64,000 nt of DNA from Escherichia phage naam, in the sequence record MN850630.1, one strand, 5' to 3'. This document shows positions 21,587-45,714 of the stretch, piece after piece. The translations under genes and the position numbers were made by a program. The notes beneath the pieces are model-generated. The model saw only the letters and a list, made by a program, of their open reading frames with translations, did not search any database and was not told where the DNA came from. Position 1 is the stretch's first letter. Each line of letters opens with the position of its first letter.

Positions 21587-21886
21587 ATGTTTATCCAGGC
21601 TAATAATCTTTATTTCTTTGATGGTCAGATCGTAGACGGCGTGGAGGTGGAAATAACCGGGTGCCCTGGCGGTCAGGTTATGACTTTTCGGAATAATGCC
21701 TTTGATGATTCTCATATCGTTATGAGAATGGAAGTTAGTAAGCTGGATGACAAGAAAACACTTATCGACTATTCCGTCAAAGATCATCCAGACTACCACA
21801 TGATCTATGGTGATTTGTGCATTGTTGACCGTGACAAGGTGAACGGCATTGTTATAGCCATTGTGAACGATGTTTTCTCTGAATAA
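21587..21886 (+). CDS. hypothetical protein
   Basis: ATG 21587 eight nt after AAGGAG. Confidence 0.55.
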   Translation: MFIQANNLYFFDGQIVDGVEVEITGCPGGQVMTFRNNAFDDSHIVMRMEVSKLDDKKTLIDYSVKDHPDYHMIYGDLCIVDRDKVNGIVIAIVNDVFSE

Positions 21887-22110
21887 TTCCGGCAAATGAT
21901 GCAAAATAAGGCCCCTAGCAGGGCCTGCAGCGATATAATCACATAAAGGCTATGCGGTTGCATGGCCTTTATTATTTTAGCGTTACAGCGGCCCCAAGGC
22001 GCTTAAAAAATTTTTAAAGAAGTACTTGCATCAAGTCCTACAATATGGATAATAGGACGTGTCAGGGGGGCGGCCCCCAATCATTAACCGGATAGATAGG
22101 AGTTAAAATC

Positions 22111-22395
22111 ATGGCTATTGTCACCGTTGGCGATGTAGTGGAAATGGAAGCAAAATACTTAAAAGCGGGTATGCATATCCTACGGAATGATCAAGAATTG
22201 TTATTAACGATGGTAGACTATAATCCCGGCCAGGATTATCCAAGCATCGACTACTTTTTTGAGTATGTTGATGAAGAATTGAAAGAGGATGAGACTTATC
22301 AGGGTGAATTCTGCAATTTCTTTTGCCCTGATGAGGTTGTAAAAGTTATCTATCAACCTGGCGTACCTTTCCCGCTGCACGCTATCAATAAATAA
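22111..22395 (+). CDS. hypothetical protein
   Basis: 94 aa, TAGGAG RBS; GC hairpin after stop. Confidence 0.55.
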   Translation: MAIVTVGDVVEMEAKYLKAGMHILRNDQELLLTMVDYNPGQDYPSIDYFFEYVDEELKEDETYQGEFCNFFCPDEVVKVIYQPGVPFPLHAINK

Positions 22396-22457
22396 ACCTG
22401 GCGGGGCCGAAAAGGCCCCCGCCTGAAATTATGAAAAATAAAAAGAGGCAAACTATC

Positions 22458-22688
22458 ATGATGGAACAAATTAAACGCGCTGAGGCTATTAATGGCAATG
22501 TGATCTATTTTGTCAGCAATAACGAAAAAGGCGTACCATATGCGGCGGTAATAGTACAGCCTGACGGCAATTATTGGTTTACTGTATACGGATCTTATTC
22601 TTTCGGGCGTCCGGTGCATGATAGAATTTTAAAAGTAGCGAACCCAACCGGGAAGAATATCACAGCAGAAAAATTTTTTGAAAAATAG
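22458..22688 (+). CDS. hypothetical protein
   Basis: ATG 22458 after AAGAGG. Confidence 0.5.
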   Translation: MMEQIKRAEAINGNVIYFVSNNEKGVPYAAVIVQPDGNYWFTVYGSYSFGRPVHDRILKVANPTGKNITAEKFFEK

Positions 22689-22716
22689 TTGACATGGCCT
22701 TATAAGACTGTAGAAT
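22689..22716 (+). promoter_or_regulatory. sigma70-type promoter (TTGACA-16-TAGAAT)
   Basis: Read directly upstream of 22764 gene. Confidence 0.55.
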
Positions 22717-22763
22717 ATAAATCAAAGGGGCAAGCCCCATCAACGGCAAAGAGGATAAAAATC

Positions 22764-22943
22764 ATGGCTATTATTGCAAAGACTGAGATCGTAGGCTTAG
22801 ATTCTATTCTCCTCGCATATGAGGAAGCTATAGAAATGTATGTGGTTTCCTATGGTGAGTATATCCGTGAATATAAATCTATTGATCTGGCTTTTGAATG
22901 TTATATTCGCCAGGTTAATAAAGCGTACGATGATTATCGTTAA
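22764..22943 (+). CDS. hypothetical protein (59 aa)
   Basis: ATG 22764 after AAGAGGATAAAA, downstream of promoter. Confidence 0.45.
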   Translation: MAIIAKTEIVGLDSILLAYEEAIEMYVVSYGEYIREYKSIDLAFECYIRQVNKAYDDYR

Positions 22944-23034
22944 AATAGTTTGACAACAAACAACCATCTAACAAAGCATAACACATAAGGTGGTAGAATG
23001 ATCCGCCACCTGGAACAAAGAAGAGGTAAACACC

Positions 23035-23280
23035 ATGAAAAGCAATAAAGGTTATAACGGTTACAAAAACAAAACTCATTGGAATGTAAGCCTTTGGATT
23101 AATAACGATGAGTCCTTGTACCGGTTGGCCCAAGGCTTTATTAACGCTAATGCTAATCGTAATGATGCGGCGCGGGATATGATGCTTTTTCTGGAGCTAA
23201 CCGGACAAGATAAGACCCCGGACGGCTTCAAGTACAGCACTACGGCGATCCGTGCCGCGATGGTTGGAATGAAACACTAA
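23035..23280 (+). CDS. hypothetical protein
   Basis: 81 aa, AAGAGG RBS. Confidence 0.55.
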   Translation: MKSNKGYNGYKNKTHWNVSLWINNDESLYRLAQGFINANANRNDAARDMMLFLELTGQDKTPDGFKYSTTAIRAAMVGMKH

Positions 23281-23357
23281 AAGCACATAGCCGCCTTACC
23301 CTGGGGCTGTAGTAGCGGTCCCATGAATAAGGTTACTAACAGAAGAGAATAAACACC

Positions 23358-23462
23358 ATGAAACAGAAATTAATTGATGCGGTGATCCTGGTTATTGCCC
23401 TGGGTATTGGCCTGATTGCAACCATGGCTAATGTGATCTTGTCTTCCAACGGTATCGGGTGA
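23358..23462 (+). CDS. small membrane peptide (34 aa)
   Basis: AGAAGAGAA RBS; single hydrophobic helix. Confidence 0.4.
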   Translation: MKQKLIDAVILVIALGIGLIATMANVILSSNGIG

Positions 23463-23471
23463 GGTTGGCAA

Positions 23472-23687
23472 ATGATCACTAACAAAACAGGCAAAACGGA
23501 ATTTTTACGCAACTTACAGATCGGCAAGCCTGAGATCTGGTATTGCACTAAAACACCACGTGACGAAATGAAAGACTTCACCGCCACGCTGCAACGGGTA
23601 AAGATATCCATCACGCAGAAAAAGGCCTTATTAGTGGTGGAAGGTGAGATCCCCCAAACCGTTGTTATAGTTGAACGTACAGCATAG
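23472..23687 (+). CDS. hypothetical protein
   Basis: 71 aa, GAGG RBS. Confidence 0.45.
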   Translation: MITNKTGKTEFLRNLQIGKPEIWYCTKTPRDEMKDFTATLQRVKISITQKKALLVVEGEIPQTVVIVERTA

Positions 23688-23778
23688 TTTAATTTATACC
23701 GATACCTGAAAATTAACCAACAAGGCATAAACAGGCTGTTACCGCCGCCTTAAACGTAGCAGAAAGAGGATAGACACA

Positions 23779-24063
23779 ATGAAAAAGATGATCGCAGTGG
23801 TTGCCCTGGTTGTTGGACTTAATGCGCCTGTAATGGCTAAAGAGCTGGCAAAAGAGGTTAATCTAACGGATATTCATGCCGTCAATCGAATCGGGGTTAC
23901 TTATCGCTTATGCCTTGCCGCTAAAACTTTTAAGGACGGCACGACAGAGTACTACGGATTCGAGGGTGTCCGGTGCGGTGAACTTGCTCGCGACCTTAAG
24001 GAAGATCCAGACCTGGAGGATCTGCCCATCACCGTAAACGGGAAAACTTACGTAAACCGTTAA
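23779..24063 (+). CDS. putative secreted protein (signal peptide)
   Basis: N-terminus MKKMIAVVALVVGLNAPVMA signal-peptide-like; AAAGAGGA RBS. Confidence 0.55.
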   Translation: MKKMIAVVALVVGLNAPVMAKELAKEVNLTDIHAVNRIGVTYRLCLAAKTFKDGTTEYYGFEGVRCGELARDLKEDPDLEDLPITVNGKTYVNR

Positions 24064-24065
24064 CC

Positions 24066-24200
24066 ATGAGAAAGATAATTATTACCATGGGGATCGTGGC
24101 GGCAATGTTGGCGATCTTTCCCTTTATGGTTAGGTATGTGCTGATTAATGTTGTCCTGGTAGTCAGCGATCTGGTGTTATATATTAACTCATTGTTTTAG
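24066..24200 (+). CDS. small membrane peptide (44 aa)
   Basis: Hydrophobic; weak RBS. Confidence 0.3.
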   Translation: MRKIIITMGIVAAMLAIFPFMVRYVLINVVLVVSDLVLYINSLF

Positions 24201-24208
24201 GCGCGATA

Positions 24209-24400
24209 ATGACAGCGGAAGAAGTTAAAAAAGTACTGGCGGTACTGCGTTATCATAATCATTGCAAGGTGAAGAATGATCCTGATTATCTTGATTCATC
24301 CCTTGAAGAGGATACACTACAAGCCATAAGCAACATGCAAGAATTGCTTAAGCGTATGACAGAGAAAAACCGACCGGACTACATAGGGGGTAAAATATGA
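24209..24400 (+). CDS. hypothetical protein
   Basis: 63 aa ORF; weak RBS. Confidence 0.45.
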   Translation: MTAEEVKKVLAVLRYHNHCKVKNDPDYLDSSLEEDTLQAISNMQELLKRMTEKNRPDYIGGKI

Positions 24401-24708
24401 TCGCTATTACGCCAACCGTTTTAGATTGGTATCGGCAACGCATAGCGCCTCCGCTGGCTATCTTCAAAGATGCGGAAGCAAAACAACGCCGGATCTCAAT
24501 ACATGAGATCATCAACCTTAACGCTGGAGGCACACCATACCGCCCAGGACCTGGCCGTGAGATGGACAATACGTTAGCGATCCTGAAGATACGCCGTAAA
24601 CGGTCCTCCCTTACGCTGGACTCATTACACACAATGCAGCCTCCGTTCCAGGTGACCGGGAAACGGATCGCCAGGTCCTGGACAAAGGCCAATGATCGGA
24701 CCGTATAA
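24397..24708 (+). CDS. hypothetical protein
   Basis: 103 aa, ATGA overlap, GGGGG RBS. Confidence 0.5.
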   Translation: MIAITPTVLDWYRQRIAPPLAIFKDAEAKQRRISIHEIINLNAGGTPYRPGPGREMDNTLAILKIRRKRSSLTLDSLHTMQPPFQVTGKRIARSWTKANDRTV

Positions 24709-24794
24709 ATAAAAGTGTTTTGGTACTGATTTTGGGGTTGACTTGTTCGGCCCCTTTTGCTATTCTTATTAAACGGGCGGCACTTGGGAACAGG

Positions 24795-24817
24795 GGGAGA
24801 CAATCACCAGGCCTGCC
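24795..24817. repeat. GC-rich conserved element, copy 3 (inverted relative to copies 1-2)
   Basis: GGGAGACAATCACCAGGCCTGCC is reverse complement of copy-1 core with one mismatch. Confidence 0.55.
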
Positions 24818-24842
24818 TGTCATATAAGAACTATAAAAACCG

Positions 24843-24871
24843 TTGACATCTGCCATGGGGTGAGGTAACAT
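24843..24871 (+). promoter_or_regulatory. sigma70-type promoter (TTGACA-17-TAACAT)
   Basis: Read directly upstream of 24926 gene. Confidence 0.5.
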
Positions 24872-24925
24872 TTATCTTGAAGGGGCAAAAGTGCCCACAC
24901 AACAACCAGAAGAGAGGAAAACATT

Positions 24926-25198
24926 ATGTCAAGCTGGATTAATCAAGAAGTCGAATCACGTTTTAATGCTATTTGGGATCTCATCGAAAAAGAGGACGGA
25001 ACATCAAGCCCTTATCTCAATAATCTTGAATTCCATTTCGTGGAAGCGATGAACGCAGAACATGATCACGAAGGTGGTGCGGATGAATTCGCTAAAGGAT
25101 ATGGCTTCAACAATGCCAACGAAATGATCGAGGCGGTTGTACTCCAGGCTGAGGAAGATTATCAATTAAAAACGCTTGAATTCTGCCGCCGTAAGTAA
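24926..25198 (+). CDS. hypothetical acidic protein
   Basis: 90 aa, AGAGAGGAAAA RBS. Confidence 0.55.
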   Translation: MSSWINQEVESRFNAIWDLIEKEDGTSSPYLNNLEFHFVEAMNAEHDHEGGADEFAKGYGFNNANEMIEAVVLQAEEDYQLKTLEFCRRK

Positions 25199-25260
25199 TA
25201 AGATAATGACACGGGCCAAAAGGCCCACTAAACAAAAACCACATAAAGAGGAAAAACATC

Positions 25261-25524
25261 ATGAAACGCCTTGATCAGCTCAAATTAGTTCAATATATGG
25301 CTTATCGTGTTCTTGAAGTCCAGAAAGGTAGCAAAAAAGAGGTTTGCGAGAAAGCTTATAAGATCTTCACTCGCAAAAAAGATGACTGGATGCTACGCCA
25401 GACCAAAAAGGCTGACATCTTGGGGTACCTGGAAGAAGAGATCCGCCTTGAAGAGCAAGAAGAGATCCGCCGTAGTGAGGCAGATTATCAGGCAGCTTGG
25501 GAAAACTGGATGAGCAACAAATAA
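25261..25524 (+). CDS. hypothetical protein
   Basis: 87 aa, AAAGAGGAAAAA RBS. Confidence 0.55.
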   Translation: MKRLDQLKLVQYMAYRVLEVQKGSKKEVCEKAYKIFTRKKDDWMLRQTKKADILGYLEEEIRLEEQEEIRRSEADYQAAWENWMSNK

Positions 25525-25590
25525 TACAACAAGTTACGGTCAGGGGGGTAATAAAGCCCCTTGATCGCATAAAAATTATGCCATCTCTGG

Positions 25591-25619
25591 TTGACAGGGA
25601 TCGGCAGTTTTGCTATATT
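25591..25619 (+). promoter_or_regulatory. sigma70-type promoter (TTGACA-17-TATATT)
   Basis: Read directly upstream of 25669 gene. Confidence 0.55.
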
Positions 25620-25668
25620 CTTTTTTGAAGGGAAGTTGTAAGAAAATTAACTAAGAGGTAAAAACACC

Positions 25669-26088
25669 ATGAACATTAAATCTAATAATCCGGCATATAG
25701 CTTTGATAACGCTTTTTGTCACGGTCCGGCGGCGAAAGGATTCGAAATCGATGGTAAACTAATTATTGTCAATGTTGACGGGGAAGAGGTTGCAGTATAT
25801 CCGGTGGCAGACGTAAAAAGCCGTTTACAATGCCGCATGGATGTTACCGCCTATCAGCTTGATCCGGTCCGCATAGTTGCCCTGGTCCTGGAAGAAGAAA
25901 TTAAAGCCATGCACCATAGCAACAGATTTATTGGTGACGCGCAGGATAATATGAAAGTATGCCGCCATAAAGTTAATGAAGTGCTTAAAGAGTACGGCTA
26001 TAAAGATCTTATGATCAAACGTGAGGAAAAATTCCGCTACCGTAACGACCTGGCAAATCGGATTTTTGAAATATACGAATCATTATAA
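25669..26088 (+). CDS. hypothetical protein
   Basis: 139 aa, AAGAGG RBS; last gene of plus-strand block. Confidence 0.6.
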   Translation: MNIKSNNPAYSFDNAFCHGPAAKGFEIDGKLIIVNVDGEEVAVYPVADVKSRLQCRMDVTAYQLDPVRIVALVLEEEIKAMHHSNRFIGDAQDNMKVCRHKVNEVLKEYGYKDLMIKREEKFRYRNDLANRIFEIYESL

Positions 26089-26106
26089 TTTTTTAACTGA
26101 ATTATC

Positions 26107-26132
26107 AAGGGGCTTAGGCCCCTTTCTTTTTG
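26107..26132 (+). terminator. rho-independent terminator
   Basis: AAGGGGC-ttag-GCCCCTT + TCTTTTTG. Confidence 0.65.
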
Positions 26133-37423: not shown

Positions 37424-37885
37424 CTACTTAAATAGTAGTCCAAAATAGTGCAAAATTAACAGAAGTTGAACTACACCTAGTGCAACGGCGAGTATGTTAA
37501 TCTTAGAATCGAAAAACTTCTTAACTTTTACTCTAAAAGGTTCCTTAATGTCCTTTACGATCCTATTTATAGATGATTTCATATCCCTGATTACCATCCT
37601 AAACATTAGAGACGGATCTTCCTTCTCTGTAATAGAATCGAAAACATACTCTCTTCGGTCATAAGGACCTCCAGATCTGCGTATTAACCTCTCCACAGAG
37701 ACCTCGTACGACACACCTGTAACGTAATCATCTATGATAAGTAGTGACGGGTCTTTATCGTCCAAGGGTATTAAAGTTATCTTTCCAGATTTTGTTAAAA
37801 TTTCTCCTTTTTCAAGCAAGGTGTACCAATGCTCTCTACCAAGATTGTTGAGGCACGTTTTTACATATTTAACAAACATCGTCAC
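37424..37885 (-). CDS. putative C-terminally membrane-anchored protein
   Basis: 153 aa; C-terminal hydrophobic helix ILAVALGVVQLLLILHYFGLLF. Confidence 0.5.
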   Translation of the reverse strand: MTMFVKYVKTCLNNLGREHWYTLLEKGEILTKSGKITLIPLDDKDPSLLIIDDYVTGVSYEVSVERLIRRSGGPYDRREYVFDSITEKEDPSLMFRMVIRDMKSSINRIVKDIKEPFRVKVKKFFDSKINILAVALGVVQLLLILHYFGLLFK

Positions 37886-39744: not shown

Positions 39745-40013
39745 AATCTAGGCTCCTTAAATGAATCTATGTAATCAATTAAATCCCAAGCATCCCTATG
39801 ACCTGTCAGAGGGTATACTTCTCCAAGAGGGATCATAGCAATAAGTCTATCAAAAACCCAATCTGGACGCAACATTTTATGGTGATACTCCCACTCACCT
39901 TCTACAGACTTTTTCTGAGTGATCAGGATCTCTGTGTAGTGTTTCGCCTGTCTTGAGTAGATTGAGAATGACTTGTACATAAATGGCCCCCTCTTGTTGA
40001 AAACAAAATACAC
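39741..40013 (-). CDS. hypothetical protein
   Basis: 90 aa. Confidence 0.5.
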   Translation of the reverse strand: MYFVFNKRGPFMYKSFSIYSRQAKHYTEILITQKKSVEGEWEYHHKMLRPDWVFDRLIAMIPLGEVYPLTGHRDAWDLIDYIDSFKEPRL

Positions 40014-40015
40014 TA

Positions 40016-40303
40016 CTACCAGGTCACTGTCAAGTAGGCAACTGTGTTATTTTTCTCCGGAGAGATGCCAACAACATCCACCTGCAGACCTCCTGCCCTC
40101 AAATCCCCAACAATGTGTGGGAAGTAGTCTGAGAGGTGTGATGGGAGATTTATCGAAAATCCACATCCCAGAAAGCCTGCTAACGCTTTATTTTGTATCT
40201 CCCCAACAATCGCATCATAAATAGAGTTAAGCTCGTCAGGAAGCGTTACAGGACGTTTTAGCGCTAACTGGTGCAACTTGTCCTTAGCACTCATTTTCAT
40301 TTC
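40016..40303 (-). CDS. hypothetical protein
   Basis: Internal ATG chosen to limit overlap with MTase gene. Confidence 0.45.
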   Translation of the reverse strand, partial: EMKMSAKDKLHQLALKRPVTLPDELNSIYDAIVGEIQNKALAGFLGCGFSINLPSHLSDYFPHIVGDLRAGGLQVDVVGISPEKNNTVAYLTVTW

Positions 40304-40830
40304 AAGTCTGCCTCTGGTGGTGCCAACCACATAAATGGCGGCAAGTCTAGACGGTTTTTCTTGTCCCATACAAAATATGCATATGCCTGCCCATCCGTTC
40401 TACCATTAGATTGGAATGACGGACGCTTAGATATTGTGATCACAGTGGTAGGTGCATTATCAAGCCACCATTCAAATCTGGCCTTGCTTTCCAGAAAATT
40501 AAGACGCAAAAGCATAATAACTACGTCGGCATCTTTCAACGCCTTGTCCACAAACTCACGAGCCAGGCTGTACGGCGGGTTGGTGATAATACAGTCAACA
40601 TGGTTGTATTCTGTATTCAGATAGTCAACACCTTCTTGGATTTCTCCCCATGCAGATCCTAACGGCATACGGGAGTAGAACACACCTGAGGCACTATTCC
40701 TGCAAGGCTCTAAGTAGGTCCAGTCTTCTGGGAACGGAATAAGGTAATACAGCCCTTCTGCACACCACTCCGGTGTCACATACTCATCGTAGGCGTTACG
40801 TTGTTCATCAGGTTTTCTAGCACAAGTCAT
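40297..40830 (-). CDS. DNA N6-adenine methyltransferase-like (small amino-MTase)
   Basis: Motif ITNPPYS (NPPY catalytic motif), YVTPEW N-terminal motif. Confidence 0.6.
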   Translation of the reverse strand: MTCARKPDEQRNAYDEYVTPEWCAEGLYYLIPFPEDWTYLEPCRNSASGVFYSRMPLGSAWGEIQEGVDYLNTEYNHVDCIITNPPYSLAREFVDKALKDADVVIMLLRLNFLESKARFEWWLDNAPTTVITISKRPSFQSNGRTDGQAYAYFVWDKKNRLDLPPFMWLAPPEADLK

Positions 40831-40844
40831 GCAAATCTCCAGAT

Positions 40845-40868
40845 CATAAAAGCCCTCCGAAGAGGGCT
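40845..40868 (-). terminator. rho-independent terminator
   Basis: AGCCCTC-ttcg-GAGGGCT + TTTTAT on minus strand after ClpP-like gene. Confidence 0.55.
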
Positions 40869-40881
40869 TTAGAATTAATGT

Positions 40882-41931
40882 TTAAGCTTCTTCGACAATT
40901 CCTGCACCCAGGATTTTTTCATTGAGCTCTTTTGCTGTTTTAATAATATTGTCCACAAGACGCTTGCGAGTCTTATCTTTCACCTTAACCTCTTCACCGC
41001 CGTTCAGAGTAGTCTTCAATTGAGACAGAATATCCTGAAGTTCAACGACAGAGAATCTCTGCAGATCTTCTGAAGTAATCTCACCCAGGGCAATTCGGAC
41101 GGTCTCGCCACTTTCCATCTGCAGATTCAGGAACACAGTGTGAACATCACCTTTCGAACCACCCGCTTTTGCAGATTCAACAGCATGAACTAACTCATCT
41201 AAAGATGTGCACTGATGAATCTCCGGAAGACCTGCTTCACCTAACACGCCTTCTTCATCACCTTTTGCCAGAAGCTTTTTCGGTTTTTGTCCGTTCTGGA
41301 TGCGTTGTATGTTGCCTTCATCCAGAATAATAGCTCCAGTGCGTGCTGCCAACTCTTCTCCGTCCAACCACACTTCGCCACCAGCTGTGATGGATGCGAT
41401 CTCATCTTCTGTCAGCACCCCACCGTAGTATTTTTCGATCAGGTGTTCAAAACGTTTTTTCCAGTAGCTGACCTGAGTATTCATGTTAACACCGTTACCA
41501 TAAGTGCCACCTTGATAGTAGTGGAACATAAATTCTGTGTCCGGAGCCACAGTACGTTCTTTGCAACCAAGCCATAAGATTGTTCCAGCAGAGCAGCACA
41601 TCCCTTCAGCATGTGCAACAACGCTTGCCTGAGACTCGCGGAATGCCTGCAGATAGGCCATTGCAATGTGCACGCAACCACCAGGGCTATTGATGATCAC
41701 ACGAATGCTTTCTTCCGGCTGCGCCATACGGATCGTCTGCAGACGAGACATATGATCCTGCAGGTCCTCCAAATCGTCGATATAAAGAACGTGGTCAACA
41801 ACAGGTGTTGGGTAGCTGTATGTTTCCATGATACCGCCCGGCATACCAAACATTTTATTACTCATAGGTTCGAAACCGTTCTGTTTTTCTTTCATGCCGT
41901 GTACCATGGTGCTGCGAGGTGTTAAATTCAT
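40882..41931 (-). CDS. ClpP-family serine protease-like protein with C-terminal extension
   Basis: INSPGG, GMCCSAGT (Ser motif), FHYYQGG (His motif) as in ClpP; about 150-aa coiled-coil-like C-terminal region. Confidence 0.7.
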   Translation of the reverse strand: MNLTPRSTMVHGMKEKQNGFEPMSNKMFGMPGGIMETYSYPTPVVDHVLYIDDLEDLQDHMSRLQTIRMAQPEESIRVIINSPGGCVHIAMAYLQAFRESQASVVAHAEGMCCSAGTILWLGCKERTVAPDTEFMFHYYQGGTYGNGVNMNTQVSYWKKRFEHLIEKYYGGVLTEDEIASITAGGEVWLDGEELAARTGAIILDEGNIQRIQNGQKPKKLLAKGDEEGVLGEAGLPEIHQCTSLDELVHAVESAKAGGSKGDVHTVFLNLQMESGETVRIALGEITSEDLQRFSVVELQDILSQLKTTLNGGEEVKVKDKTRKRLVDNIIKTAKELNEKILGAGIVEEA

Positions 41932-41991
41932 GAGAAATCCTTAATATTGGAAGTTGAAAGCTATTTATTTAAACCTGATTCACATTTACCT

Positions 41992-42426
41992 TTATTTAGC
42001 AATCACTATGGAGTACTTACGATTGTCAGAAGCATCACAACTCAATGATTGCCAATCTACCACATACCACGTATCATTGTCAACAATTACTTTATCGCCT
42101 GTTCTGTAGCAAGTGCTGCTTTCAATAATTCGAGACTCGATAAAGAATCTGTGTCGGCGCTCACGTAGCAACGCTAAGTTGATTATATTACCACCGCTGT
42201 CCTTGGTCCACACATTCTTGGATCCTTTATTTGCCAAAATTGTCTCACCGTTATAGACAAATAGGCAGTATATTTTATTCAGTTTCTCTTGTATTGTAGC
42301 CATACTGTCCTTCTCTTTGTTTTGTCCGATAATAATATCTAAAGCTTGCCTATTTGTCAACAACTGTTTTAGATATTTAAGGGTGGAATAACCACCCTTC
42401 TGTATTACTCGGAAACAGGGGTCCAA
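41992..42426 (-). CDS. hypothetical protein
   Basis: 144 aa; start uncertain. Confidence 0.45.
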   Translation of the reverse strand: MDPCFRVIQKGGYSTLKYLKQLLTNRQALDIIIGQNKEKDSMATIQEKLNKIYCLFVYNGETILANKGSKNVWTKDSGGNIINLALLRERRHRFFIESRIIESSTCYRTGDKVIVDNDTWYVVDWQSLSCDASDNRKYSIVIAK

Positions 42427-43193
42427 ATATGATTTGCACGATCCTCAATAAGATTGAGTGCGATTTGACGACCCAACCCGGAACGAACGACATCGTCTGG
42501 ACTATCAAAGCTGATCATTCCAACCTCAGGATCTGGATGACGAGTAAAGAAATCCGTCACCCATGCAAGGCCAGATTTACCAGGGATGTCACGTTGGCTA
42601 TTATCACCCATAATTACAAGGGTGGCTTGATCAGAGATCCTTGTGATAATTGACAACATTTCTTCAGGGTTAGTTTGCTGTGCCTCGTCAATCAGGACAA
42701 AGCATCGCTCATCGAAACTACGACCACGAATGCTTTCAACTTCACAAATCTCGATACGACTGTTCTGACCGTCTCCCAGCATTGCGGCAAAAGCACCTTT
42801 GCCAACACGACGACAAATCGTGTCCATCATGCTTCGAAGATAGGGCCACAGTTTCTGCATTGCATTTCCTGGTTTAAATCCTGAAGTCTTTCCTGTCTGG
42901 ACGTAAGGACGTGCAACAATGATCTTATCAATCTCGTTCTTACGCAGAAGATCACCTGCATATGCAGATGCCATAAATGTCTTACCGGATCCAAACACAC
43001 CGTTTACAATAATAATCTTACGTGACCCTAGATAATCAAGATACTTTTGCTGCTTCTTATTCATTGGTCGGAGAGCTGGAGCGGTGTGCTCTCTTTCGTC
43101 AGCAAATTTCTCAGCAGCCTTACGCAGGCGATCAGATTTGCGAGCCTCTCTAGCTTCATCACGCATGCGTTTTGTTTCTTTAGCTCGACCCAT
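42405..43193 (-). CDS. phoH: PhoH-like ATPase
   Basis: Walker A GVFGSGKT; LIDEAQQ Walker B region; 262 aa. Confidence 0.8.
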   Translation of the reverse strand: MGRAKETKRMRDEAREARKSDRLRKAAEKFADEREHTAPALRPMNKKQQKYLDYLGSRKIIIVNGVFGSGKTFMASAYAGDLLRKNEIDKIIVARPYVQTGKTSGFKPGNAMQKLWPYLRSMMDTICRRVGKGAFAAMLGDGQNSRIEICEVESIRGRSFDERCFVLIDEAQQTNPEEMLSIITRISDQATLVIMGDNSQRDIPGKSGLAWVTDFFTRHPDPEVGMISFDSPDDVVRSGLGRQIALNLIEDRANHIWTPVSE

Positions 43194-43231
43194 GTTGGGA
43201 CTCCTTTCAGATTGAGATGTGCCAAGTACTT

Positions 43232-44781: not shown

Positions 44782-45714
44782 TCATTTACCACAAATCTTC
44801 TTGTATACCTCTTCTACCGTGTCAAACACTTCAGGCCTGTAGTAGAAAAACTCAGTGCTACCGTCAAATTTTACAGGAAAGTTTATTTTATACTTGCTCA
44901 AGGCCTTATGCACAGATTTTTCTAAATCTACCATGTTTTGAGTTGATCCGCTCCATGTTTTTACTACGTGAAGAGTGTGGACACCTGCGCCAGATTTACG
45001 AGCACTGTTAAGCACCTCATTTTTCCTCCTGTGCATTTTAACGCATACACCGATTTTCATAAGTGTTGGCACTTCTAAGTCATCAACCATAATGTAGAGT
45101 TTACCGTACTCATGAGATAAGAATCCATTTTGTGCGCATTTACAGCAGCCACGACCACTTTTTAGGTTATTAGGTTTAGCAGACCACTTATACCCACAAA
45201 TTTTGCACCTACATTGCACTTTTGTGTTATCATTGGCAATTTTCTCTAATATTTCTATGTCTGGGTTGGCTTTGTGGATAATTGCAGCGTGCTCCTTATG
45301 GGTTAACGCTTGACTTTGCCCACGTCTTAAGTCATAGCACTCTGGGCAGCCGTTTCTTTGGTATAAGTGGTTTTCAGGGTATTGTTCAAACACACCGTGT
45401 TCAGGGCAAACAATTTTTACAGGCGTTCTCATGTTCGCATATTTGACTAATGAGTAATCGTACTTGTCCCCATGAACAGCCATAGCCTCTTTTATGAACT
45501 CTTCAGTGTTCTTTTTCGCTGACCCACCACACCTTGGACAACCATGATTCTTGAAAGCATGTGCCACAGGGGTTTGCCAGAACTCACCGTGCTCAGGACA
45601 AATTATACACACAGGTGTCTTGTTGTTTTTATACTCCACTTTGAAGTAATCATATTTGTCACCATGTATAGTCTGAGCTTTTTCTATAAACTCTTCGGTT
45701 GTTAGTCTTCTCAT
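44782..45714 (-). CDS. T5orf172/GIY-YIG-like domain protein with repeated zinc ribbons (homing-endonuclease-like)
   Basis: Three repeats of GDKYDY...CPEHG...GCP.CG; C-terminal KIGV...TEFF resembles T5orf172 domain. Confidence 0.5.
   Translation of the reverse strand: MRRLTTEEFIEKAQTIHGDKYDYFKVEYKNNKTPVCIICPEHGEFWQTPVAHAFKNHGCPRCGGSAKKNTEEFIKEAMAVHGDKYDYSLVKYANMRTPVKIVCPEHGVFEQYPENHLYQRNGCPECYDLRRGQSQALTHKEHAAIIHKANPDIEILEKIANDNTKVQCRCKICGYKWSAKPNNLKSGRGCCKCAQNGFLSHEYGKLYIMVDDLEVPTLMKIGVCVKMHRRKNEVLNSARKSGAGVHTLHVVKTWSGSTQNMVDLEKSVHKALSKYKINFPVKFDGSTEFFYYRPEVFDTVEEVYKKICGK

Follow-up and report, generated by a model that had tools for sequence, protein, structure and literature searches.

A putative non-capsid ClpP-fold serine peptidase encoded outside the head module of the rV5-like Escherichia phage naam

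Does a ClpP-like protease gene that lies outside the head genes of a phage encode a displaced prohead protease, or an enzyme with other substrates in the infected cell? This question is raised by a 349-aa ORF on the minus strand at positions 40882-41931 of the window, that is, the whole stretch of 64,000 nucleotides of Escherichia phage naam (MN850630.1) analyzed here. An earlier note on this DNA, made from the sequence alone, had offered two readings of the gene: a prohead protease-scaffold fusion displaced from the structural module, or a protease used against host proteins. We compared the protein with curated profiles, structures, complete genomes and published virion proteomes, and the evidence is set out below.

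The locus and its probable transcription unit

The window belongs to a Vequintavirus (rV5-like phage). It is colinear with positions 32008-95932 of Escherichia phage PMBT16, to which it is 99.9% identical over the locus (40000-43200), and the protein is 100% identical to its counterpart in phage ime. The gene corresponds to rV5 ORF 122 (rv5_gp117), which has been annotated since the rV5 genome paper of 2013, and more than 100 deposited Vequintavirus genomes carry it; it is an already known entity, to which the present analysis adds no new one. The name "ATP-dependent protease subunit", found in more than 100 phage records, is derived from homology. The literature searched yielded no functional work on ClpP homologues encoded outside phage structural modules and no Vequintavirus transcriptome, and the CRISPRi-ART paper, which includes phage EdH4, contained nothing on this gene. 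The abundant rV5 virion protein gp133 was considered as the ClpP-like protein and rejected, as it is the product of ORF 133, with 151 aa and one transmembrane domain.

The start ATG (41931) is preceded by AAGGA. Upstream of the gene lies a 103-aa ORF (41992..42303, minus strand; phrog_5456, rV5 ORF 121), which is probably co-transcribed with the protease gene, followed upstream by a sigma-70-like promoter (TTGACA-17-TATTAT, 11 of 12 matches; 42332..42360, minus strand) that is the same as rV5 promoter P121. Sigma-70-like promoters occur genome-wide in rV5, so that this promoter alone does not fix the timing of expression. A terminator-like hairpin, AGCCCTC-TTCG-GAGGGCT followed by TTTAT (40846..40868, minus strand), was read from the sequence immediately 3' of the protease stop codon. 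Two terminators are annotated in the EdH4 record somewhere inside the 3.2-kb matched region.

The earlier note had placed the gene between a methyltransferase and PhoH, and this placement was correct, with the 103-aa ORF separating the protease gene from PhoH. The PhoH-like P-loop ATPase gene occupies 42405..43193 (minus strand; PF02562, E=3.6e-47), and a DNA N6-adenine methyltransferase-like gene lies downstream of the protease at 40297..40830 (minus strand; phrog_799, E=8e-66). The same order of the methyltransferase gene was observed in CR9, and also in Barba35A, but there with an unrelated Dam. The wider neighborhood comprises nrdAB, nrdDG, thyX, PhoH, Dam and ligase genes. A PADLOC search gave no defense-system match to the protease.

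The protease core and its relation to ClpP

The ClpP-family motifs reported earlier are real, with INSPGG starting at residue 80, GMCCSAGT at residue 110 and FHYYQGG at residue 136. The Pfam profile CLP_protease (PF00574, clan SK, ClpP/crotonase fold) matched residues 59-168 with E=3.5e-12 and 47 bits against a cut-off of 20.2, and a Foldseek comparison of the AlphaFold model with solved ClpP structures gave top matches with E of about 1e-8 and TM of 0.63-0.74 (target-normalised). The protein belongs to the CLP_protease superfamily. The protease core was assigned to residues 45-212 (41296..41799, minus strand) on the basis of Pfam, AlphaFold, Foldseek and hhalign. It is preceded by an N-terminal region (residues 1-44; 41800..41931, minus strand) that is variable, predicted to be disordered, and carries the family motif N-x-F-G-x-P-G ... 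Y-P.

Cellular ClpP (MEROPS S14; E. coli, PDB 1TYF / 6WR2) shares this fold over about 170-190 residues. The catalytic Ser and His align between the two, as does the SPGG oxyanion motif, and both have a handle-like helix after the His, which the AlphaFold monomer of the window protein places at residues 150-169. Ser114 (codon TCT, 41590..41592, minus strand) aligns with ClpP Ser97, and His137 (codon CAC, 41521..41523, minus strand) aligns with ClpP His122. Glu186 (codon GAA, 41374..41376, minus strand) is the likely third member of the triad; it was placed by secondary-structure register and cross-lineage alignment and not by MAFFT pairwise alignment. Ser114, His137 and the SPGG motif of the oxyanion region were invariant in 21 family members, and the Ser, the His and the GG pair were invariant across nine distant phage lineages. 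The position of Glu186, taken from that register to be equivalent to ClpP Asp171, was acidic (D or E) in 8 of 9 lineages, and most of the close long-form relatives have Q there.

Unlike cellular ClpP, to which it is only about 20% identical, the protein is phage-encoded, has Glu or Gln in place of Asp, and adds a 137-residue C-terminal extension. The axial N-terminal loop and the docking pocket of ClpP are not conserved in it. By hhalign, residues 1-39 did not align with ClpP residues 1-19, leaving the axial loop with no counterpart. The pocket by which E. coli ClpP docks the IGF/LGF loops of ClpX/ClpA consists of Y60, Y62, F82, I90, M92, F112 and L114, and these residues mapped in a single hhalign profile alignment (96% probability) to R77, I79, E99, H107, E109, T127 and A129. 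Five of these positions are polar (R77, E99, H107, E109 and T127), and none of the five varies among family members. Judged from this one alignment, the hydrophobic ClpX/ClpA docking pocket does not appear to be conserved.

The best curated profile was NF045542, "head maturation protease, ClpP-related", with E=1.8e-16 and 60.6 bits, half of its cut-off of 120. The clpP equivalog TIGR00493 scored 33.2 bits against a cut-off of 308.6, and the other ClpP NCBIfam models were all far under their cut-offs. Several "head maturation protease" PHROGs also matched, at 1e-14 to 1e-22. The profile scores thus put the protein nearer to the ClpP-related head-maturation proteases (61 bits) than to ClpP of cells (33 bits), so that it may plausibly have evolved from a head protease. 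Because both curated definitions failed and the unfoldase docking pocket appears to be missing, "ATP-dependent Clp protease subunit" is probably a wrong name for the protein.

Among the PHROG families, the match to phrog_5410 was full-length (E=2.2e-154; residues 24-345 aligned to positions 4-322 of the 323-position profile), which indicates that the extension is conserved in this family. The short-form family phrog_1827 matched with E=3.2e-40.

The C-terminal extension and the separate head protease

The C-terminal extension had been described as about 150 aa, charged and coiled-coil-like. It is real and charged, covering residues 213-349 (137 aa) with 31% charged residues versus 21% in the core, but the coiled coil was not upheld, as the AlphaFold model shows a linker and a compact domain. 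The charged linker (residues 213-262; 41146..41295, minus strand) is variable and partly disordered according to AlphaFold and the family alignment. The alpha/beta domain that follows (residues 263-349; 40885..41145, minus strand) is modelled with pLDDT of 80-91 as a beta-hairpin and a helix-loop-helix of two long helices, and its placement relative to the core is uncertain in the model (pTM 0.51). F293, E297 and R322 are invariant in this domain, and L298 and L325 are nearly so. In a search among 1.84 billion representatives, the domain was restricted to the PHROG 5410 clade. Homology between the extension of the window protein and the C-terminal extensions of the ICP1 and CR9 proteins was undetectable by BLAST or hhalign. 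By eye, the CR9 extension has a pattern like that of the window protein.

The earlier observation that the window contains no head genes is accounted for by the complete PMBT16 genome, in which the head module lies at 104.7-110.9 kb, outside the colinear region. In PMBT16, the ClpP-like gene is at 72.8-73.9 kb on the minus strand, and the portal (106.5 kb) and major capsid protein (MCP; 109.8 kb) genes are on the plus strand. The head module is thus about 33 kb from the ClpP-like gene and on the opposite strand. Adjacency to the portal and MCP genes, which would have pointed to an ordinary prohead protease, was not found, and the non-structural context of the gene holds.

Directly after the portal gene, PMBT16 encodes an XkdF/Peptidase_S78_2 prohead protease (107836-108408; PF14550, E=1e-17). 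Genes for a scaffold-like protein, a decoration protein and the MCP come next. This one genome therefore encodes two phage serine proteases; the XkdF/S78_2 protease showed no similarity to the ClpP-like protein, and its fold family is unrelated. Nor did the C-terminal domain of the ClpP-like protein show similarity to the scaffold-like head-module protein. In RefSeq and PHROGs, the head protease of these phages is mislabelled as "DNA methyltransferase".

Published virion proteomes of the related phages W70 and CB7 contain the head-module XkdF/S78_2 protease, and the ClpP-like protein is not listed in either. In the accessible part of the rV5 report, no detection by MS is marked for the ClpP-like protein, and no tryptic peptide of it appears in the MS tables, which may be truncated. 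Because proteases can be lost after maturation, this absence is compatible with a transient role in procapsids.

ClpP-related head proteases (NF045542; PHROGs 1684, 94, 2976 and 133) resemble the window protein in having the ClpP fold and often a C-terminal extension. A true head-module member, Gordonia phage Blino gp4, is 428 aa with a long C-terminal extension and differs in gene context. Unlike these proteases, the window protein is not encoded between portal and MCP, comes from a phage with another head protease, is missing from the virion proteomes, and has a C-terminal domain unrelated to the scaffold-like protein. The name "head-maturation protease" should not be used for it.

Proposed role, rival explanations and the PhoH linkage

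Non-structural ClpP-fold peptidases are widespread in large lytic phages, and were found in rV5-like, ICP1, T5-like, KVP40-like, N4-like and Pakpunavirus types. Besides the window, we sampled 12 other homologue loci of large lytic phages (ICP1, CR9, phiPsa267, PaP1, N4-like AD45-P1 and 1.025.O, KVP40-like D490, Kpn9-P3, Barba35A, T5-like PSTCR5, helene 12B3 and phiAB441), and all 13 were in non-head locations (nucleotide metabolism, replication or other). The PHROG 1827 / 5410 homologues, such as ICP1 gp211, phiPsa267 gp047, PaP1 gp041 and CR9 gp221, are 28-35% identical to the window protein in the core (E=1e-12 to 1e-27). Like it, they are encoded in regions of nucleotide metabolism, replication or early genes, and they are often linked to PhoH; most differ in being short (about 180-245 aa) and in lacking its C-terminal domain. 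According to published work on ICP1, gp211 lies in a nucleotide-metabolism block (gp176-211), a subset of whose genes peaks at 12 min, and the capsid protease is the separate gp125 in a late cluster.

The explanation that we favor, with a probability of about 0.6, is that the gene encodes a second, non-capsid ClpP-fold peptidase that is active in the cytoplasm, with capsid maturation carried out by the separate XkdF/S78_2 protease. A second protease is preferred to a displaced head protease because the portal gene of the phage already has a protease gene beside it. The present analysis established the fold, the conservation of the Ser and the His, the place of the gene in the genome and the existence of a separate head protease, whereas the literature supplied the absence of the protein from virions and the location of the homologue in ICP1. 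According to this proposal, the protein would be a catalytically competent serine peptidase with a Ser114-His137-Glu186 triad, belonging to a phage-specific family made up of PHROG 5410 and the short-form PHROG 1827. It would probably be expressed as part of a two-gene unit from the sigma-70-type promoter, within an early/middle nucleotide-metabolism and replication block, and would act in the infected cytoplasm and not in the procapsid, capsid maturation being left to the protease beside the portal. The subunits may assemble into a ClpP-like ring. At its apical face, the site of the docking pocket in cellular ClpP, the ring would bear the C-terminal domains, each tethered by a flexible charged linker. 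With these domains in place of the pocket, the enzyme would most likely work without canonical docking of a host unfoldase, and might thus be independent of ClpX/ClpA, the C-terminal domain possibly selecting or delivering host or phage substrates. A protease directed at host proteins, the other reading in the earlier note, would be in keeping with the evidence.

As a main reading, the displaced prohead protease-scaffold fusion was rejected on synteny, the XkdF protease, the virion proteomes and the dissimilarity of the C-terminal domain to the scaffold-like protein. The XkdF/S78_2 protease and scaffold-like gene in the head module disfavor it as a present-day function, as do the rV5 (in its accessible part), W70 and CB7 virion lists and the presence in ICP1 of gp125 besides gp211. 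Stated as a second capsid-assembly factor, that is, a ClpP-related prohead protease with a scaffold-like or capsid-targeting C-terminal domain, encoded afar and acting in procapsids, this reading is improbable. The rank of NF045542 among curated profiles, the head-maturation PHROG matches and the long extensions of true head proteases such as Blino gp4 argue for it. Scaffolding proteins have helix-loop-helix coat-binding motifs, which the terminal helix-loop-helix loosely resembles, with weak HeH/SAP hints. Against it are the NF045542 score at half the cut-off, the head-module protease and scaffold-like gene products found in W70 and CB7 virions, the virion lists without the ClpP-like protein, the distant position on the opposite strand amid nucleotide-metabolism genes, the unrelated C-terminal domain, and the occurrence of homologues in N4-like phages and in phages whose head proteases are of the gp21 or gp125 type. 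It is equally doubtful that the protein serves as a proteolytic subunit for host ClpX/ClpA, either by itself or mixed with host ClpP in one ring, and so diverts ATP-dependent proteolysis during infection. The ClpP fold, the Ser-His-acid triad, the handle-like helix and the common record name would fit such a role, but the score is far below the clpP equivalog cut-off, the names are homology-derived, the pocket residues are replaced by invariant polar ones, the axial loop is not alignable, and, from the topology of ClpP, seven C-terminal domains would be expected to exit at the apical face where unfoldases dock. The least probable reading, to which we give very little credence, is a degenerate or decoy ClpP, weak or inactive, that sequesters host factors or poisons host ClpP rings. 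It could draw on the non-conserved canonical Asp (Glu here, Gln in most close relatives) and on the failure of all curated ClpP cut-offs, but it is weakened by the invariance of the Ser, the His and the SPGG motif in the 21 members and of the Ser, the His and the GG pair in the nine lineages, the pattern expected for an active enzyme.

In a further alternative, the peptidase and the PhoH-like ATPase encoded nearby would be the two components of one phage machine, such as a module for NTP-driven degradation or for RNA/protein turnover. We consider this unlikely, and the narrower idea that PhoH and a ClpP-fold peptidase whose docking face has been remodelled form a virus-specific NTP-dependent degradation or turnover machine is slightly more doubtful. 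The evidence in favor of a partnership is that 7 of the 13 sampled loci, or 6 of 11 non-structural lineages, had PhoH on the same strand no more than about 1.5 kb upstream, giving a binomial tail of 6e-6 if the probability under random placement is at most 0.05, a value calculated on a small sample of hand-picked loci with kinship ignored. The linkage may, however, merely reflect descent of a shared nucleotide-metabolism module, and it was absent from the PaP1, N4-like, KVP40-like, T5-like and Sugarlandvirus-type loci. In addition, the PhoH profile matches AAA_30, AAA_19 and UvrD, that is, the SF1-helicase-like P-loop class, whose members are not known unfoldases. If the partnership were true, it would give a function to the mis-named "ATP-dependent protease subunits" and to PhoH, which has long been an orphan among the "auxiliary" genes of phages. 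For both of these orphan families, the linkage is a concrete lead that can be tested. The pair of PhoH followed by a ClpP-like gene was found in rV5, CR9, ICP1, Otagovirus, Barbavirus, Vibrio phage helene 12B3 and Acinetobacter phage phiAB441, and in phiPsa267 and Barba35A the two genes are directly adjacent or overlapping.

Genomic position of the ClpP-like gene

The ClpP-like open reading frame (40882-41931, minus strand, 349 aa) has AAGGA 5' of its ATG, and the ClpP-family motifs reported in the earlier note were confirmed (INSPGG, GMCCSAGT and FHYYQGG begin at residues 80, 110 and 136, respectively). Pfam CLP_protease matched residues 59-168 (E=3.5e-12; 47 bits, threshold 20.2), and a phmmer search of PDB sequences returned ClpP chains only (top E=9e-8). 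The gene lies, as previously described, between a DNA methyltransferase-like gene (40297-40830; phrog_799, E=8e-66) and the gene for PhoH, a P-loop ATPase (42405-43193, minus strand; PF02562, E=3.6e-47), with a 103-aa ORF lacking a Pfam domain (41992-42303, minus strand; phrog_5456) between PhoH and the protease. Escherichia phage PMBT16 and phage ime share 99.9% identity with the locus (40000-43200), and some 100 further rV5-like phages (Vequintavirus) share 97-99%; the protein was 100% identical in phage ime. It corresponds to rV5 ORF 122 (RefSeq rv5_gp117), which the rV5 paper of 2013 (PMC3606486) lists as 'ClpP (ATP-dependent) protease subunit, 349 aa, 38.5 kDa'. Public records from 2008-2013 onward already contain the gene, its location and its resemblance to ClpP, and more than 100 genomes repeat them.

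The complete genome of PMBT16, colinear with the window over 32008-95932, has a plus-strand head module spanning 104.7-110.9 kb. The module includes TerL (104717-106264) and the portal gene (106455-107921; Portal_Mu, phrog_113). Directly 3' of portal is a 190-aa gene (107836-108408), and the module further contains a 325-aa gene (phrog_2970) and the genes for a decoration protein (phrog_2680) and the MCP (Phage_cap_E, E=3e-40). The 190-aa product matched Pfam Peptidase_S78_2 (XkdF-type phage serine protease, E=1.1e-17), indicating that PMBT16 encodes a dedicated prohead protease at the canonical position. The ClpP-like gene is located about 33 kb away on the minus strand (72824-73873), in a block with nrdA/B, nrdD/G, thymidylate synthase, PhoH, MTases, nucleases and ligase. 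It is thus not adjacent to portal or MCP, and the non-structural context recognized from the window holds in the complete genome. The rV5-like Peptidase_S78_2/XkdF head protease (rv5_gp063 in rV5) carries the label 'DNA methyltransferase' both in RefSeq rV5 and in PHROG 1530, which looks like a propagated mis-annotation, and is named 'hypothetical protein' in PMBT16.

Homologue loci were compared in 12 further phage groups and one true head-module contrast. The gene occupied a non-head position in ICP1, PaP1, phiPsa267, CR9, Barba35A, helene 12B3 and phiAB441, in the N4-like AD45-P1 and 1.025.O, in the KVP40-like D490 (beside DHFR), in Kpn9-P3 (a dNMP kinase on one side and a holin on the other) and in the T5-like PSTCR5 (amid tRNA genes, a peptidoglycan hydrolase and a Ser/Thr phosphatase gene). 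In contrast, Gordonia Blino gp4, a weak actinophage match, was the sole head-module case, with the order TerL, portal, protease, scaffold and MCP.

Family, active site and docking surface

In a search of 5.8 billion proteins, the long form (about 300-355 aa) was limited to 38 clusters, whose members come exclusively from phages of the rV5, 4MG, Hena1 or SalP219 type or from metagenome contigs that carry no label. When 21 of these clusters were aligned, core residues 45-212 were free of gaps (mean identity 63%), the linker (213-262) was variable and gappy, and the last 87 residues were nearly without gaps, with F293, E297 and R322 fully conserved and L298 and L325 almost so. Ser114 and His137, the aligned counterparts of ClpP Ser97 and His122, were invariant in the 21 members and also across nine lineages (rV5, ICP1, CR9, phiPsa267, PaP1, AD45-P1, D490, Barba35A and Kpn9-P3). 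By secondary-structure register, Glu186 occupies the position of ClpP Asp171; eight of the nine lineages have D or E there, and most close relatives have Gln. AlphaFold2 (mean pLDDT 75.7) predicted a confident ClpP core together with a disordered N-terminus (1-42) and a disordered stretch at 223-235. The C-terminal extension, thought earlier to be coiled-coil-like, was instead modelled as a compact domain (helix 244-257, beta-hairpin 267-281, long helices 295-309 and 322-342; pLDDT 80-91). Foldseek against the PDB retrieved ClpP structures only (TM 0.63-0.74).

The profile search proposed in the earlier note, ClpP versus prohead protease families, was performed with NCBIfam and PHROGs. Because the top NCBIfam match, NF045542 'head maturation protease, ClpP-related' (60.6 bits, cut-off 120), and the clpP equivalog TIGR00493 (33.2 bits, cut-off 308.6) both scored below cut-off, the protein is a curated member of neither family. 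By profile score the phage head-protease branch is nearer to it than cellular ClpP is, which fits descent from an exapted head protease. Among PHROGs, the long-form family phrog_5410 (E=2e-154) and the short-form family phrog_1827 (E=3e-40), which share the label 'ATP-dependent protease, other', preceded the head-maturation PHROGs (1e-22 or weaker).

The unfoldase-docking pocket of E. coli ClpP, which we take from the ClpP-ADEP and ClpX literature to comprise Y60, Y62, F82, I90, M92, F112 and L114, corresponded to R77, I79, E99, H107, E109, T127 and A129 (profile alignment, 96% probability). R77, E99, H107, E109 and T127 showed no variation in the family, and the axial N-terminal loop of E. 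coli ClpP had no counterpart in the alignment. On sequence grounds, host ClpX or ClpA appears unlikely to dock in the canonical way, and 'ATP-dependent protease subunit', a name in wide use, is therefore probably a misnomer.

Virion proteomes, expression and possible roles

Published virion data were consistent with a non-structural protein, the ClpP-like protein being absent from each of the three sets considered (W70, CB7 and rV5). The 28-protein virion proteome of W70, a related member of Vequintavirinae that may or may not encode a phrog_5410 homologue, includes the head-module protease (phrog_1530) and a phrog_2970 protein and lacks phrog_5410 (PMC11370258). The sole protease in the virion table of CB7 (Certrevirus) is the 'prohead core protein protease', a portal neighbour (PMC7344957). 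Among rV5 genes, ORF 122 carries no 'MS evidence' flag, and none of six of its tryptic peptides was present in the accessible portion of the rV5 MS tables. The unexpectedly abundant rV5 gp133 was considered as the ClpP-like protein and ruled out, being a separate 151-aa membrane-anchored protein.

In ICP1, the capsid cluster gp122-126, including the predicted maturation protease gp125, is late, and some of the nucleotide-metabolism genes in the range gp176-gp211 reach their peak at 12 min (PMC7567579); the ICP1 homologue is gp211. A near-consensus sigma-70 promoter (TTGACA-17-TATTAT, 42360-42332; rV5 P121) precedes the 103-aa ORF, and a GC-rich hairpin with a short T-rich tract (TTTAT) directly follows the protease stop codon, which suggests that the two genes form a unit. 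The 103-aa ORF is probably co-transcribed with the protease from this promoter and could be its partner or regulator; no homologue of it was detected at the other lineages' loci. Expression timing in rV5 is not fixed by promoter type alone.

We favor, with a probability of about 0.6, an active phage-specific ClpP-fold peptidase that is cytoplasmic, not a capsid protease, and probably independent of canonical ClpX/ClpA docking. Such an enzyme would be made alongside nucleotide-metabolism genes, and its clade-specific C-terminal domains, on charged linkers, would sit on the apical face and bind substrates or partners. The displaced prohead protease-scaffold fusion raised earlier, that is, a second procapsid protease or scaffold, shares the profile leaning toward head proteases and is improbable given the separate protease beside portal and the virion lists. 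A core for host unfoldases would suit the ClpP fold, and the altered docking pocket leaves it similarly improbable. An inactive decoy, to which Gln at the Glu186 position in most close relatives might point, is very improbable with Ser114 and His137 invariant.

A functional pair with PhoH is also unlikely, and the linkage itself is a testable lead. In 7 of 13 sampled loci (the rV5-type window, CR9, ICP1, phiPsa267, Barba35A, helene 12B3 and phiAB441), a phmmer scan placed a PhoH homologue no more than about 1.5 kb upstream on the same strand, and the Barba35A order (PhoH, Clp, Dam-type MTase) is that of the window. Linkage in 6 of 11 non-structural lineages gave a binomial tail of 6e-6 assuming random co-location at p=0.05, a statistic from a small hand-picked sample that ignores shared descent of the nucleotide-metabolism module. 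To our knowledge, linkage of PhoH with a ClpP-like gene has not been reported. The literature searched yielded no functional study of this protein or of any non-structural phage ClpP homologue; the family is widespread, and both common annotations are probably wrong.

Other features of the window

A 153-aa ORF with a hydrophobic C-terminus (37424-37885, minus strand) corresponds to rV5 ORF 133, whose product is among the predominant virion proteins by MS (PMC3606486). The gene is situated among small early-region genes despite this abundance; PMBT16 calls it 'HNH homing endonuclease (intron)', and a Pfam search found no domain. Between nrdD and nrdG, a 310-aa ORF (44782-45714, minus strand) that combines repeated treble-clef zinc-finger/DUF723/CapR modules with a C-terminal T5orf172 (GIY-YIG-like) domain resembles a mobile insertion of the homing-endonuclease type; the corresponding position in rV5 holds small ORFs only. 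Colinearity with PMBT16 was lost at 21880-26107, a hypervariable region of very small ORFs around a GC skew sign change, where short blocks of 89-93% identity and gaps were found, compared with about 98% identity elsewhere.
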